Of a DNA stretch of 64,000 nucleotides, positions 128-5,965 are shown one piece after another; position 1 is the first letter of the stretch; the number at the start of each line of letters is the position of its first letter. Source of the DNA: a phage; assembly GCA_025284135.1 (NCBI GenBank), contig GCA_025284135.1_3646.1. One strand, written 5' to 3'. A program made the translations under genes and the position numbers. The notes below the pieces were generated by a model. That model was given only the letters and a program-made list of their open reading frames with translations, was not told where the DNA came from and searched no databases.

Positions 128-365
128 GGTAGTGTCGGCCCTTCATTGGCACTCGCCTACGAGGGGCGAGATGCCGGGCCTCCATAGTGCACACAATAAC
201 AGAAGTGCATACATGCAGGACTGTTAACATGTGTGGGAGCGAAGCGATAGCGCAGGCCAAAGGCCGAGCACTAATGTGGACCACCGACGAAAGCTTGCCA
301 GCGCCGGAAGGAGTCGGTTGAGAGCCTCCCGCGCGAGTTCGGATAAAGTTTATGTGTGGAAACTG
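128..365 (+). other. GC-rich noncoding element A (candidate structured RNA or cis element), homologous to 1640-1875
   Basis: Locally GC-rich with no convincing ORF; multiple hairpins (e.g. CTCGCC..GGCGAG); shares ordered motifs ATAGTGCAC, ACATG, GTTAACA, GAGCGAAGCG, AGGCC with element B. Confidence 0.35.
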
Positions 366-2374: not shown

Positions 2375-2449
2375 GCCCTGTTAGCTTAGTGGATAAAGCA
2401 GCGGCCTTCTAAGCCGTTGACACTGGTTCGAGTCCAGTACGGGGTGCCA
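2375..2449 (+). tRNA. tRNA-Arg (anticodon TCT)
   Basis: Hand-folded cloverleaf: acceptor GCCCTGT/ACGGGGT (2 GU pairs), anticodon stem GCGGC/GCCGT with loop CTTCTAA, T-arm ACTGG-TTCGAGT-CCAGT, encoded CCA. Confidence 0.6.
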
Positions 2450-2579
2450 AGTTCTTTTTAATGTAGCTTACTTTAGCAGAGTAAATCTTCGGCAAGTGGC
2501 GGTAACCACTTTACCGATACCTCATAGTTAGTGGTGAGAACACTAGCTATTTTAAAAAGAATTTAAATATTAGTATTTA

Positions 2580-2667
2580 GGTGAGTTAATTCCGTAGGGG
2601 TAGCGGGGCAGACTGTAAATCTGTTATCATTGCGATTCGGGTGGTTCGACTCCATCACTCACCACCA
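2580..2667 (+). tRNA. tRNA-Tyr (anticodon GTA), long variable arm
   Basis: Acceptor GGTGAGT/ACTCACC, anticodon loop CTGTAAA, T-loop TTCGACT, encoded CCA. Confidence 0.6.
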
Positions 2668-2781
2668 AATTTATATTTTTAGATGCATAAATCATACAGA
2701 TAATGGCATTGATATTTATCGTCGTTTATACTAGTCACTAACTGCTCGAAAATCAGTGTCATTATCAGTATTGTTTATAAA

Positions 2782-2872
2782 AGAGGGTAGGGAGCAATGG
2801 TGCTCAAGCGGTCTTGAAAACCGTCCCGTTGAGGATGACTCGATGATGGTTCGATTCCATTACCCTCTGCCA
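2782..2872 (+). tRNA. tRNA-Ser (anticodon TGA), long variable arm
   Basis: Acceptor AGAGGGT/ACCCTCT, anticodon loop CTTGAAA, T-arm GATGG-TTCGATT-CCATT, encoded CCA. Confidence 0.6.
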
Positions 2873-2970
2873 TATTGTTGACCTTGTAATTAAGCGAAAG
2901 CCGGAAGCAGAACCGGATTATCAAATGTTACAGTCGTCATCGCCGACTAGCAACATGGTCAACATGCTGA

Positions 2971-3067
2971 GCTAGGTAAGCCCTTTGGCAAGGGCGAGGA
3001 TTTTTAATCCTGAAAATAGACGAGGTAGTCGTTGAATACATAGATGGTTCGATTCCATCACCTAGCA
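2971..3067 (+). tRNA. atypical tRNA-like gene (about 97 nt; anticodon-loop candidate TTTTTAA = UUU/Lys; about 30-nt variable region)
   Basis: Perfect acceptor pairing GCTAGGT/ACCTAGC, D-arm GCCC-TTTGGCAA-GGGC, T-arm GATGG-TTCGATT-CCATC, but only a 4-bp anticodon stem and an extra hairpin ACGA-GGTAG-TCGT; no encoded CCA. Confidence 0.35.
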
Positions 3068-3074
3068 CCTTTTT

Positions 3075-3150
3075 GCTGATGTAGCACAATTGGTAGTGCA
3101 ATTGATTTGTAATCAATAGGTTGCAGGTTCAAGTCCTGCCATCAGCACCA
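3075..3150 (+). tRNA. tRNA-Thr (anticodon TGT)
   Basis: Acceptor GCTGATG/CATCAGC, D-stem GCAC/GTGC, anticodon stem ATTGA/TCAAT with loop TTTGTAA, T-arm GCAGG-TTCAAGT-CCTGC, encoded CCA. Confidence 0.7.
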
Positions 3151-3151
3151 A

Positions 3152-3226
3152 GGCCCTGTAGCTGGAAGGTTCAAGCAAGCGACTCATAATCGCCAGACGG
3201 TGGTTCAATTCCACCCAGGGCCACCA
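3152..3226 (+). tRNA. tRNA-Met or Ile2 (anticodon CAT)
   Basis: Acceptor GGCCCTG/CAGGGCC, anticodon loop CTCATAA, T-arm GGTGG-TTCAATT-CCACC, encoded CCA. Confidence 0.65.
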
Positions 3227-3237
3227 AATAGTAGATA

Positions 3238-3314
3238 CTCCGCGTAGCTCAGCTTGGTAGAGCGCCTGATTTGGGATCAGGAGGTCGAGTGTTCGAATCA
3301 CTCCGTGGAGACCA
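3238..3314 (+). tRNA. tRNA-Pro (anticodon TGG)
   Basis: Acceptor CTCCGCG/CGTGGAG (1 GU), D-arm TAGCTCAGCTTGGTAGAGCG, anticodon stem CCTGA/TCAGG with loop TTTGGGA, T-loop TTCGAAT, encoded CCA. Confidence 0.65.
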
Positions 3315-3360: not shown

Positions 3361-3630
3361 ATGTATACACTTAAAATTGTAGAGCGTGTGAATCCAACCC
3401 ATACCGTAGATTTTCGTGACGATTTCAATCCTCTGGCTGTAAATCTTCGAGAGTCATATCATGAACTCAGCTGCGATGCAGTGGTGGTCTTTTTTGAAGA
3501 CAACTCTGAAGGGGCGGTAGCTTGTGTTGTTGATAGTGAGCAGAAGTTTTATATTTACAGAGATGTAGATGCATACTTGATGAATGAAAATGCAGTTACT
3601 GTTAGAATCATCCACCGAGTGCCTCGATAA
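3361..3630 (+). CDS. hypothetical protein (89 aa)
   Basis: ORF with AAGGA RBS; followed by a terminator-like hairpin. Confidence 0.45.
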   Translation: MYTLKIVERVNPTHTVDFRDDFNPLAVNLRESYHELSCDAVVVFFEDNSEGAVACVVDSEQKFYIYRDVDAYLMNENAVTVRIIHRVPR

Positions 3631-3686
3631 GTATTAGTCTCCTTTTAGTTAGTTTCGATCTATTTAGGTTACTCAATTTTAACCCG

Positions 3687-3717
3687 CCCCGTTAGCTGTA
3701 TAGCTGCGGGGTTTTTT
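3687..3717 (+). terminator. rho-independent terminator-like hairpin
   Basis: CCCCG..CGGGG stem followed by TTTTTT. Confidence 0.45.
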
Positions 3718-3735
3718 CGTTTCTGGAGCCTTAAA

Positions 3736-4134
3736 ATGATTTCAGGTTTAACATGGCTTAGTAGGTATAGAGGGATCATAAAAGGTTTAGTTTTTGCAGC
3801 GGCTATAGGTACAGCTTATCTTGGGGCCGTGTATTGGTTTAACTCTAAGCTCAATGATGCTTATCAGGAAGGTGTGTCAGCAACAGAGTTAAAGTGGGAA
3901 CGGATCCTTGACCAACAACAAAAGCAGGCCGACAAAATTAAAATGGGCCACGCAGAGGAGGTTAAAAACCTTGAAAAATCCCTTTCTGATCTACAGGATA
4001 AATTAAATATAGCTGAGAGGGCAGGTAGAGAAAAGCAGATTATCTACCTCCAATCACCTGAAGGTAAGAAGTCAACACTTCCTGATCAGCTTATAGATAT
4101 TTATAATGAGAGTATCAATCAGGAGGATCGATGA
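3736..4134 (+). CDS. i-spanin-like protein (N-terminal TM helix plus periplasmic coiled coil)
   Basis: N-terminal hydrophobic segment GLVFAAAIGTAYLGAVYWF then a charged helical region; start of next gene overlaps its stop. Confidence 0.5.
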   Translation: MISGLTWLSRYRGIIKGLVFAAAIGTAYLGAVYWFNSKLNDAYQEGVSATELKWERILDQQQKQADKIKMGHAEEVKNLEKSLSDLQDKLNIAERAGREKQIIYLQSPEGKKSTLPDQLIDIYNESINQEDR

Positions 4135-4418
4135 GAGTTGCCACACTGTTTATTGCGTGCTTGTTATTATGTGGGTGTGCAACCAGCGTTGAGAGAGAAT
4201 ACAAGATTGACCCTCCGGATGTAGGAAGGTTGATTGTTAAACCCCCAGAAGGTGCCATGAAACCACCTGCTAAAGCTATGCCTTTGAAGAAAGGTGCGCC
4301 AGATGCAGTGAATTCTGGCATTATGAGGGATAATAATCTGTCTTGTAGCAATGATAGAGCTAAATTGATCATTTTGCAAGACTATATTAGAACACTGTTT
4401 CCAAAGGAGAGAGGTTAA
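4131..4418 (+). CDS. o-spanin-like lipoprotein (proline-rich)
   Basis: Signal-like N-terminus MRVATLFIACLLLCGCA with Cys at lipobox-like position; Pro-rich mature region (KPPEGAMKPPAKAMP); overlaps upstream gene by 4 nt. Confidence 0.5.
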   Translation: MRVATLFIACLLLCGCATSVEREYKIDPPDVGRLIVKPPEGAMKPPAKAMPLKKGAPDAVNSGIMRDNNLSCSNDRAKLIILQDYIRTLFPKERG

Positions 4419-5965
4419 TGTCTAAGATTTACGGACCGTGTTCTGAAAAGCAGAAGATGATCCTCGAAAACGATGCAGATATCTTGGTAATCGGCGGTGC
4501 CGCAGGGTCTGGCAAGTCGTTCCTCTTGCAGTTGATGCCACTTAAAATTATTGATGACCCCCACAGCTCTGTGGTTATGTTCCGAAGAACAACCCCACAG
4601 TTAGAAGGTGAGGGTGGACTATGGCCTAAAGCAGTAGCTATTTATAGTGATCTGCCTGAAAACATTAAGCCAAAGTTCAGAGAGAAGGATCATAAGTTCA
4701 TTTTTCCACGGTTTGATCCGAACACTGGTAAGTGGGATAGAAGCAAAAAGGGAGCTGTTGTAAAATACTGCCATATGGAGTATGTACAAGATAAGCTTAA
4801 CCATCAGGGGCTTGAGTACACCATGGTTTGCTTCGATGAGGGCACGCAGTTCGAATGGGAGCAGATAGACTACCTGATGTCTCGTCTGCGATCTCAGTCA
4901 AAGTATCCATCAAGAATGGTTATCAGCTGTAACCCCGATTCAGAACACATGCTTGCCAAACTGGTTAGATGGTGGTTGGACGATGAAGGGTATCCAGATC
5001 CGGAGAAATGCGGTAAGAAAAGATATTTTATCCGACGCGACGGTGAATTTATCTGGGGGGACTCTAAAGAAGAGTTGATAGAGAAATACACCACGGTTAA
5101 CGGACTTGGTGTGGAGATCAAGCCAAGACCGTTGTCATTCTCGTTTATAGGCGCAACAATATTCGATAATCCTGTTTGCTTAAGAGACAACCCAGAATAC
5201 CTTGCTTTCCTTGAAGGTCTGCCGGAACTGGAAAAAGCTCAGCTTCTTCATGGTAACTGGTTTGCAAAGCCTGAGGGCGCAAACTATTTTCAAAGATCTT
5301 TCCTTCGTGATGCCGATAGAGTACCCCTTGGATCAGTATCTTGCAGGGCATGGGATAAGGCAGGAACCGAGAGAACTTCCGGTAATAAATTTCCTGACTT
5401 TACCGCCAGTGTTAAGGTAAGTAAAGATAGCGACGGCTTTTATTACCTGTCCGGTGATTATTGTCCTGAGAACGTGGATGACGGGAGGTATTCCACAGGC
5501 CTGGAAGGCAAGTTCTGTAAAAAGGCTGGTGAACGAGATGTGATCATCAGGAAACAGGCGCAGTTTGATGGTGATGATTGTATAATCGTATTCTCTGTGG
5601 ACCCCGGTCAGGCAGGTAAGAGTGAGTTCTTAACCTCATCCAGATCCTTGCTCGCAGAAGGGTTCAGGGTTGAAGAAGACCCAATGCCTTCCAACAAGTC
5701 TAAACTGACAAGGTTCTCACCTTTTGCCAATCTTGCCCAACAAGGGATGGTGAGGATTGTAAAATCCAGTTTCCATCCTGATACTCTGGAAGCATTTCTG
5801 ACCGAACTTGAAAAATTCAACGGGGAAAGATCAACATTTAACAGAAAAGACGACTGGGCCGACTGTGTAGCTTCTGCGATTAATTTCCTGGAGAAAGAGG
5901 AGGTAGCACTTCCTTGTGTGATTCCATCAATCTCCTCACCTTCTATGTTCAAGCGTTTTATCTAA
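4418..5965 (+). CDS. terL: terminase large subunit
   Basis: Walker A GGAAGSGKS, Walker B-like MVCFDEGTQ, C-terminal nuclease-like region with acidic residues (VFSVDPGQAGKSEF); sits immediately before the portal gene. Confidence 0.85.
   Translation: MSKIYGPCSEKQKMILENDADILVIGGAAGSGKSFLLQLMPLKIIDDPHSSVVMFRRTTPQLEGEGGLWPKAVAIYSDLPENIKPKFREKDHKFIFPRFDPNTGKWDRSKKGAVVKYCHMEYVQDKLNHQGLEYTMVCFDEGTQFEWEQIDYLMSRLRSQSKYPSRMVISCNPDSEHMLAKLVRWWLDDEGYPDPEKCGKKRYFIRRDGEFIWGDSKEELIEKYTTVNGLGVEIKPRPLSFSFIGATIFDNPVCLRDNPEYLAFLEGLPELEKAQLLHGNWFAKPEGANYFQRSFLRDADRVPLGSVSCRAWDKAGTERTSGNKFPDFTASVKVSKDSDGFYYLSGDYCPENVDDGRYSTGLEGKFCKKAGERDVIIRKQAQFDGDDCIIVFSVDPGQAGKSEFLTSSRSLLAEGFRVEEDPMPSNKSKLTRFSPFANLAQQGMVRIVKSSFHPDTLEAFLTELEKFNGERSTFNRKDDWADCVASAINFLEKEEVALPCVIPSISSPSMFKRFI

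Follow-up and report, generated by a model that had tools for sequence, protein, structure and literature searches.

Gene order and extent of block A

The DNA analysed here is a 64,000-nt stretch of a phage genome (contig GCA_025284135.1_3646.1, hereafter the window), and its subject is block A, a non-coding element close to the start of the window with a conserved core at positions 134–337 of the plus strand. The first 2.4 kb of the window match about 120 phage records at 95–99% identity, essentially all of them Vequintavirus, and by this measure the source of the window is a Vequintavirus, an rV5-like myovirus of Escherichia coli. In these phages one strand carries, in order, open reading frame (ORF) 79, encoding a winged-helix, initiator-like protein, four 21-bp repeats, an AT-rich tract (1–122), and A, which is followed by ORF77 (496–1074), ORF76, ORF75, a second non-coding block (B), ORF74, and a tRNA cluster (2375–3314). 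The four repeats, each with the palindrome TGTCCGTnnnACGGACA, lie outside the window, after ORF79 and before the AT-rich tract, and are described from relatives (positions 1406–1489 of locus L001).

ORF79, a 116-aa helix-turn-helix protein annotated in relatives either as a 'replication initiation protein' or as a 'transcriptional regulator', also precedes the window start. In the annotated relatives it follows, on the same strand, genes for a P-loop kinase-like ATPase and a metallophosphoesterase, with an RnlA-type RNA ligase gene in divergent orientation. This RNA-repair-like set (RnlA-type ligase, Pnk-like P-loop kinase, and metallophosphoesterase) is located directly 5' of the initiator-like gene, at a switch between divergent directions of transcription (L003, 1–1512; L012, 1–1440).

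The AT-rich tract (21–31% GC) contains a long imperfect inverted repeat with arms at 24–57 and 84–117. In L002, an IMG/VR contig that is the most divergent phage relative compared, these 122 nt are 38% identical to the window and not alignable, whereas the A core is 87.5% identical and ORF77 has 84.5% nucleotide identity. A sequence-only reading of this DNA had delimited a GC-rich block at 128–365. The composition agrees, with 56.7% GC in that interval versus 44.4% in the window and 21–31% in the 150 nt upstream, and the block is real, but its conserved core is narrower than was thought. In an alignment of 17 relatives, conservation begins abruptly at 134 (GTCGGCC) and fades past approximately 337, after CGCGCGAG; it is very high in 141–180 and 221–340, with a peak at 281–320, and 181–220 is variable.

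The existing annotation of A consists of a spurious ORF only. In the ORF78 frame (231–401, annotated in rV5) the variable columns are distributed as 7/14/9 over codon positions 1/2/3, compared with 38/22/96 in ORF77; the changes are mostly amino-acid replacements, and a stop interrupts the frame in L002. An excess of third-position changes is absent from every plus-strand frame of A, and ORF78 is therefore rejected as a gene on both grounds, as is a 53-aa ORF on the minus strand, which is frameshifted or interrupted in several genomes. The earlier statement that the block holds no credible ORF and is not a decayed protein gene is borne out by the missing coding signature. The plus strand of A folds to −92.4 kcal/mol, a value that none of 200 dinucleotide shuffles equals (z = −3.0; z = −2.6 for the minus strand), and the hairpins noted from the letters alone are present.

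No match was found to Rfam 15, either in 128–365 or in 1640–1880, at the gathering score or at E ≤ 10, in a scan that spans tRNA-like RNAs, 6S, tmRNA, phi29 pRNA, RNAI, C4 antisense RNA, twister, and other ribozymes; the sequence-only reading had likewise been unable to place A in any named family. The BLASTN-type search of other phage genomes that it proposed finds A in this genus only, at 90–99.6% identity across the phage collection. Tandem or long direct repeats are absent from positions 1–500, where only 8-mers recur. A is a conserved, non-coding, strand-specific folded element and, whatever its function, a new one that is absent from Rfam.

Folded parts of A and their counterparts on plasmid-like elements

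The 5' edge of the core abuts a hypervariable junction (123–133), which is 29–100% identical among close relatives, versus 88–100% for the core. The 5' hairpin domain (137–180) consists of an outer helix (137–141 with 176–180) and an inner helix (148–157 with 165–175) that has one bulged A and is closed by the loop UACGA. The most variable part of A follows at 181–235, with the linker CCAUAGUG and a hairpin pairing 190–195 with 230–235, 197–202 with 221–226, and 206–209 with 214–217. In rV5, Murica, A135, and A6-1 an 18-nt deletion removes the tip of this hairpin and leaves its 8-bp stem, CACACAUG/CAUGUGUG, in place. The segments 123–133 and 182–189, which flank the 5' hairpin, are hypervariable among otherwise near-identical genomes, and they seem to vary jointly in the manner of a direct repeat (UAUAGG...CAUAGU versus UACGGG...CCGGGU in V18).

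The motif AUGUGUGGGAGC and two small hairpins, GCG-AUAG-CGC and GGCC-AAA-GGCC, occupy 229–273. The constant 3' core (274–335) starts with AAUGUGGACC and comprises a stem (283–288 with 313–318), a 24-nt loop, GAAAGCUUGCCAGCGCCGGAAGGA (289–312), that includes CC-GNAA-GG, and the tail UGAGAGCCUCCCGCGCG. Judging from the sequences, GGGAG (235–239) may instead pair with CUCCC (326–330), for which L002 has GGAAG and CUUCC. A second copy of ATGTGTGG is found 3' of the core at 352–359; the motif also delimits cassettes of the plasmid-like elements described below. No enrichment of TGTGTGGG was detected over the whole window.

Partial matches to A were found on small E. coli 'plasmids' among complete E. 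coli genomes, and the set was extended through PLSDB, metagenomes, and a protein-cluster database. Carriers of the A core include CP020521, CP035869, CP148565, CP178698, CP043822 (a head-to-tail trimer of a 13.5-kb unit), two metagenome contigs, and others; the plasmid-like loci are L017, L019, L021–L024, L026, L033, and L035. These elements are circular, 13.3–13.9 kb long, and built on one gene plan. They encode a 298-aa Rep protein with an HTH_36 domain that falls into PHROG replication-initiation and O-like families, a small HTH_7 protein, a major capsid protein of the HK97 type, a neck or tail-completion protein, a Dit-like protein, and a tape-measure protein. Three of the plasmid genes match the window by tblastx at 34–54% amino-acid identity, and the Dit-like protein is closest to that of Vequintavirus (50–52% identity), followed by other Vequintavirinae. 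Genes for terminase, portal, sheath, or tube were not recognisable among the plasmid proteins scanned. Taken together, the Vequintavirus-like genes and the lack of recognisable genes for these four functions make the elements candidate satellites of rV5-like phages, probably kept in the cell as plasmids.

Their non-coding DNA amounts to 2.2–2.3 kb; outside the coding parts, the A core is all that the plasmid unit has in common with the phage window, and an Rfam search of the plasmid non-coding region returned nothing relevant. The 3' core is present in all the plasmid-like elements, where the same AAUGUGGACC is followed by a stem of 6 bp with the 24-nt loop GAAAGCUUGCCAGCGCCGGAAGGA and then by the tail AGAGUCUCCCGCGC, whereas the 5' hairpin domain is present in a single plasmid, CP020521. 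In a search with a covariance model of the A 3' domain (R1), a single copy is detected in each phage window and each plasmid unit. The plasmids have, 5' of the core, from none to three cassettes, each starting with (U)GUGUGUGGG and forming two or three mini-hairpins, some with cUUCGg loops (L021, 6900–7030, with equivalents in L017, L022–L024, and L026); in the phages a single variable hairpin takes the place of these cassettes between the constant parts of A. The number and order of the cassettes vary by element, and the stems of their mini-hairpins differ by compensatory changes. Conserved blocks separated by variable spacers, which the sequence-only reading took as the sign of a structured RNA family, are a true description of A when phages are compared with plasmid-like elements, although not, as had been proposed, of A compared with B.

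The capsid protein of these elements belongs to a tight family of several hundred sequences on E. coli contigs of 13.4–14.3 kb. Two collection scans with this protein for divergent plasmid-like elements gave no new locus; a capsid protein search with contig look-ups added five more loci, of which only L033 has the A core, and the core is absent, within the sequence examined, from contigs with 51% and 82% capsid relatives. In pattern scans with a 25-nt loop motif, viral contigs yielded only the known IMG/VR phage, metagenomes yielded three phage and three plasmid-like contigs, and GTDB genomes yielded none. No paper on A or on the plasmid-like elements was found in the literature searched. In L033 (13452–21041) the element shares a contig of 30 kb with genes for aminoglycoside phosphotransferase, a DDE transposase, and genes of the TetR type, neighbours which suggest that it can carry or join resistance cargo.

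Comparison of the phage and plasmid sequences reveals compensatory base-pair changes in both conserved hairpins of A. The 3' stem reads ACCGAC/GUCGGU in phages and GCUGCC/GGCAGC in plasmids, with both sides changed in three of the six pairs; its first pair is G-U in two phage sequences, and the stem is paired throughout (100%), compared with 33–58% for slid registers. None of 500 shuffles reaches the observed covariation score of this hairpin. In the 5' hairpin every cell is paired in nine distinct sequences (34–47% in slid-register controls), and CP020521 has two of the ten pairs changed from G-C to U-A. The 24-nt loop is invariant except for G or U at position N of CC-GNAA-GG (GGAA or GUAA) and one change of C-G to U-G in phage WM, and both the variation at N and the replacement of the neighbouring pair are those expected of a GNRA tetraloop.

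The same features indicate the strand. All single-sided changes in the supported helices yield G-U pairs on the plus strand, and the GNRA (GGAA/GUAA) and cUUCGg loops are read correctly on that strand only, which is also the coding strand of all neighbouring genes. The minus strand as the functional one is disfavoured by the G-U pairs and the identity of the tetraloops.

A candidate replication-origin module

The surroundings of A in the phages correspond to the layout of an iteron-type origin, with an initiator-type gene, direct repeats, and an AT-rich tract. Over 94 residues, ORF79 is 27% identical to the DNA-binding N-terminal region of the plasmid Rep (pairwise E = 1e-6), and both match PHROG families 8102 and 428 ('replication initiation protein'). 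Iterons of 23 bp, with a sequence that differs from one plasmid-like element to the next, are positioned approximately 270 nt 5' of the plasmid core, and a near-consensus sigma-70 promoter followed by the rep operon is found approximately 270 nt 3' of it. In L002 the gene and the repeats have been replaced together: its initiator-like gene is 27% identical to ORF79 and its repeat is a different palindromic unit of 20 nt, present five times, with the A core retained. The order of initiator-type gene, iterons, spacer, and A therefore recurs in three settings with different initiators and repeats, which suggests that the parts conferring specificity can be exchanged, whereas A stays constant. The sequence-only reading had left the choice between a stable RNA and a cis-acting element for replication or packaging; of these, the cis-acting replication element agrees with where A lies, next to iterons and an AT-rich tract.

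Our tentative preference, held with less than even confidence and derived from comparison of sequences, is that A may be the folded, strand-specific component that stays constant in a module of the replication-origin type. It is suggested by the compensatory changes in both conserved hairpins, the invariant loop, the location of indels at hairpin tips, and the folding z-score of −3.0; by the plus-strand G-U pairs and tetraloops, the likeness of ORF79 to Rep, and the repeats 5' of A in phage and plasmids alike; and by the swap in L002, where initiator, repeats, and flank changed around a core that was kept. A would fold when the region becomes single-stranded, either as a plus-strand transcript or as a displaced plus strand; RNA-typical tetraloops incline us to RNA as the active form, with DNA still compatible. 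A factor available to both the phage and the plasmid-like elements might then dock at the invariant loops or process the element there. Such a factor could belong to the replication machinery and act in priming, helicase loading, or primer maturation, with replication starting beside the iterons, and the candidate satellites would keep the A core in order to use the same machinery.

Several observations weigh against this interpretation. No sigma-70 promoter is predicted directly 5' of A in the phage or 5' of the core in the plasmids, so that transcription of the plus strand of A is assumed, and the predicted terminator-like hairpins near the plasmid core are in minus-strand orientation and point toward that strand. 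Most of the compensatory changes trace to the single phage–plasmid split, and the phage-versus-plasmid covariation may all come from one divergence event. Local and long-range folds of A also compete: positions 130–140 can pair with 262–273, the pair 130–273 varies among U-A, U-G, and C-G, and minimum-free-energy and alifold models favour this arrangement, whereas the plasmid cassettes argue for local mini-hairpins. ORF79, a DNA-binding domain alone at 116 aa, could equally be a repressor with the repeats as operators. A primase-helicase of the T7 type, as encoded by this phage, is not known to need folded recognition sites. The skew analysis in the rV5 genome paper placed no origin and located only switches in the direction of transcription (PMC3606486).

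Folded elements with which A might be compared are well known beside origins, among them the ssi or primosome assembly sites (ssiA and ssiB of RSF1010, ssiA of pAMbeta1) and the primer RNA II of ColE1. The layout is alike, with an initiator gene, iterons, an AT-rich tract, and a strand-specific hairpin element 100–300 nt away, and by analogy A would also act as a single strand and have its stems kept by compensatory change. It differs from them in having no sequence or Rfam similarity and in its host, a 137-kb lytic myovirus with a T7-type replisome. A is thus of a known kind, be it an origin-side folded element or a phage non-coding RNA (ncRNA), and the novelty lies in the family itself and in its occurrence in both a lytic myovirus and capsid-encoding plasmids.

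It is unlikely, although it deserves the most attention among the alternatives, that A acts in trans as a stable ncRNA, either itself or after processing, in the role of a decoy or sponge or of the partner of a phage or host protein; it would be cut from an early polycistronic transcript and be useful to both phage and plasmid-like elements. The compact, tetraloop-rich fold and the invariant loops would suit such a molecule, as would an early region centred on RNA, with the tRNA cluster 3' of A and the RnlA ligase, Pnk-like kinase, and phosphoesterase 5' of it, and the plasmid cassettes, variable in number and delimited by single-stranded UGUGUGGG, have a sponge-like appearance. This reading leaves unexplained the constant position of A after iterons in three settings, and A has no pair of promoter and terminator that would bound a discrete gene. 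No target complementary to the invariant loop was found within the window; a weak loop-complementary site in one plasmid is at chance level and was discarded.

Two phage RNAs are relevant here. PhiTE, an rV5-like phage, carries a pseudo-ToxI RNA decoy (PMC3475682), which is, as A might be, an ncRNA from a phage of this broad group with an action on another genetic element; it also undergoes repeat gain and loss and recombination, resembling in this the cassettes of the plasmid-like elements. However, RNAs of the ToxI type consist of tandem 36-nt repeats, and A lacks the tandem near-identical repeats of about 34–36 nt that mark a type III antitoxin and has no sequence resemblance that could be found. 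The stable RNAs C and D of T4 (rnaC and rnaD) are likewise small ncRNAs of an early region by a phage tRNA cluster, co-transcribed and then processed. They directly adjoin a tRNA gene, whereas A is located 2 kb 5' of the first tRNA with protein genes between. A has no match in T4 positions 68–77 kb, and B has only short, chance-level matches there (E ≥ 0.2), none of them in rnaC or rnaD.

We regard as unlikely, taken as a whole, the extension of the origin-module reading in which A would be the shared handle of a helper–satellite system: the replication machinery of Vequintavirus would recognise it as a folded origin RNA or displaced strand, and the 13.5-kb capsid-gene plasmids would copy it for replication, and subsequently packaging, upon infection by an rV5-like phage. 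A precedent for a cis element common to helper and satellite is the cos site of P2 carried by P4. As in that pair, A is better conserved than the shared proteins, with 85% nucleotide identity and an identical loop versus 34–54% amino-acid identity. The P2/P4 signal is a terminase site in duplex DNA, whereas A is a folded single strand in a replication region, and helper dependence is inferred only. If the extension were true, rV5-like phages would be tied to common, undescribed small E. coli plasmids that have capsid and tail genes of phage type and, in at least one case, antibiotic-resistance genes as well, and the two would form a new helper–satellite pair recognisable by one common folded element. 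It would also open a route for plasmid mobilisation by therapeutic phages. The rV5-like phages are widely used as candidates for therapy and biocontrol, and for them A marks a testable candidate origin module.

Doubtful, in our assessment, is a role of A as a cis-acting leader or intercistronic RNA for the downstream genes, through processive antitermination, RNA processing, stability, or translation, with ORF79 as a repressor and the palindromes as its operators. Between ORF79 and ORF77, neither a sigma-70 promoter nor an intrinsic terminator is predicted, and the simplest model is one with A inside an apparently unbroken early operon transcribed from a promoter 5' of ORF79. A second conserved hairpin directly precedes the ribosome-binding site of ORF77 (434–475, with 12-bp arms ATAGAAAAGCTC and GAGTTTTTCTAT); its variable-column fraction is 0.05–0.2 and it is kept in the divergent L002. 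The plasmid core lies 5' of the rep operon, but the near-consensus sigma-70 promoter lies between the two, so the rep operon need not include the core, and the genes 3' of A are unrelated between phage and plasmid. Retention of the core where the presumed regulator and operators were swapped is compatible with such a leader without favouring it.

Satellites often bear the packaging signal of their helper, and A might by the same logic be a packaging (pac) site, or another terminase recognition site, copied by the plasmid-like elements, in keeping with the lack of recognisable terminase genes among their scanned proteins. Related rV5-like phages are reported to be terminally redundant and circularly permuted (PMC3475682), which implies a pac site somewhere in such genomes. 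We consider it very unlikely that A is this site, given that pairing-preserving changes and strand-specific G-U pairs are unexpected in duplex DNA, that A is far from any terminase gene in annotated relatives, and that no genome record in the collection begins at A.

Block B and other features of the early region

The sequence-only reading had presented A and B (1640–1875) as paralogous. Both are GC-rich, conserved, non-coding islands with covarying pairs, on the same strand of the same early region, and the motifs listed as common to them are literally present; their ordered sharing, however, does not exceed chance. The local alignment of A with B has z = 0.83, a score equalled or exceeded by 99 of 500 dinucleotide-preserving shuffles of B, and z is 0.62 for the semi-global alignment. 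A collinear chain of 5-mers is matched in 26 of 300 shuffles, and chains of 6-mers and 7-mers do not exceed the shuffle mean. The longest common word is the 9-mer ATAGTGCAC, and a word of at least nine letters occurs in 43 of 300 shuffles. BLASTN at word size 7 gives no match at E ≤ 10, and R1, which gives A 108.6 bits, has no match at B up to the same E value; the model covers the A 3' domain only, and three of its inner pairs are misplaced, which leaves the search result unaffected because the columns concerned are invariant. With every similarity measure at the level of shuffles, unlike architectures, and different relatives (the A core in plasmid-like elements, part of B in T4-like phages), it is highly improbable that the two are copies of one RNA family, and these comparisons assign A and B to separate families.

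B stands on its own as a conserved, structured element. Among nine relatives, four of its predicted pairs are changed on both sides, and several pairs change to G-U on the plus strand. The first 48 nt of the block (1640–1687) fall within a conserved 32-codon ORF at 1589–1687 (MRLFSCIMMNIQFKDEFDGFISGCFETGFGEG), which overlaps the stop of ORF75 by ATGA and has variable columns distributed as 2/2/10; this third-position variation suggests that the ORF is probably a real micro-protein gene. As the first hairpin of B (1650–1681) lies inside the same ORF, B proper starts at approximately 1688. The part at 1688–1880 can be drawn as a four-way junction in which the helix GGCUUG/CGAGCC surrounds three hairpins, and the 3' end of B abuts the −35 box of a near-consensus promoter (1883–1911).

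A stretch of about 40 nt in B (1761–1804, CCAACCTGTAAYAAGGTCGAGCCSAAGCGCGG...) is nearly identical to an intergenic stretch in approximately 700 T4-like phages, positioned there between a gene for a 157-aa protein and a vs.8-like gene (L018, 2960–3045), with flanking genes unrelated to the window. The hairpin 5' of this stretch differs between the T4-like phages and the window by compensatory changes (GGGG/CCCC to GGGAA/UUCCC and CACAU/AUGUG to CCUCA/UGAGG). T4 itself has no B-like region. The comparison points to a small RNA domain common to unrelated phage families. Resemblances to a DnaA box, a type I-E CRISPR repeat, domain IV of signal recognition particle (SRP) RNA, and, for B, the twister ribozyme could not be supported and were dropped.

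ORF77, the first gene 3' of A, encodes 192 aa and varies mainly at the third codon position. No counterpart was found in the plasmid unit by tblastx, and neither ORF77 nor ORF79 was found outside the genus in the phage collection; a lone relative with 50% identity to ORF77 sits in a tightly packed, unrelated context without an A-like element. In L002 an additional ORF of about 280 codons is inserted between ORF77 and a DUF7230 gene (3590–4432), and it is absent from the window. Eighteen records (MG0656xx) labelled 'Campylobacter phage', one of them marked UNVERIFIED, are about 91–98.5% identical in this region to the E. coli phage described here, which makes the Campylobacter host label look doubtful. 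Within the tRNA cluster, the gene at 2580–2664 was called by Rfam and missed by ARAGORN, and it is annotated as tRNA-Tyr in relatives; in turn, the tRNA-Ser at 2782–2872 was called by ARAGORN alone. The tRNA gene of 97–99 nt at 2971–3069 has a four-base anticodon according to ARAGORN, and the equivalent 97-nt gene is annotated as tRNA-Lys in one relative.

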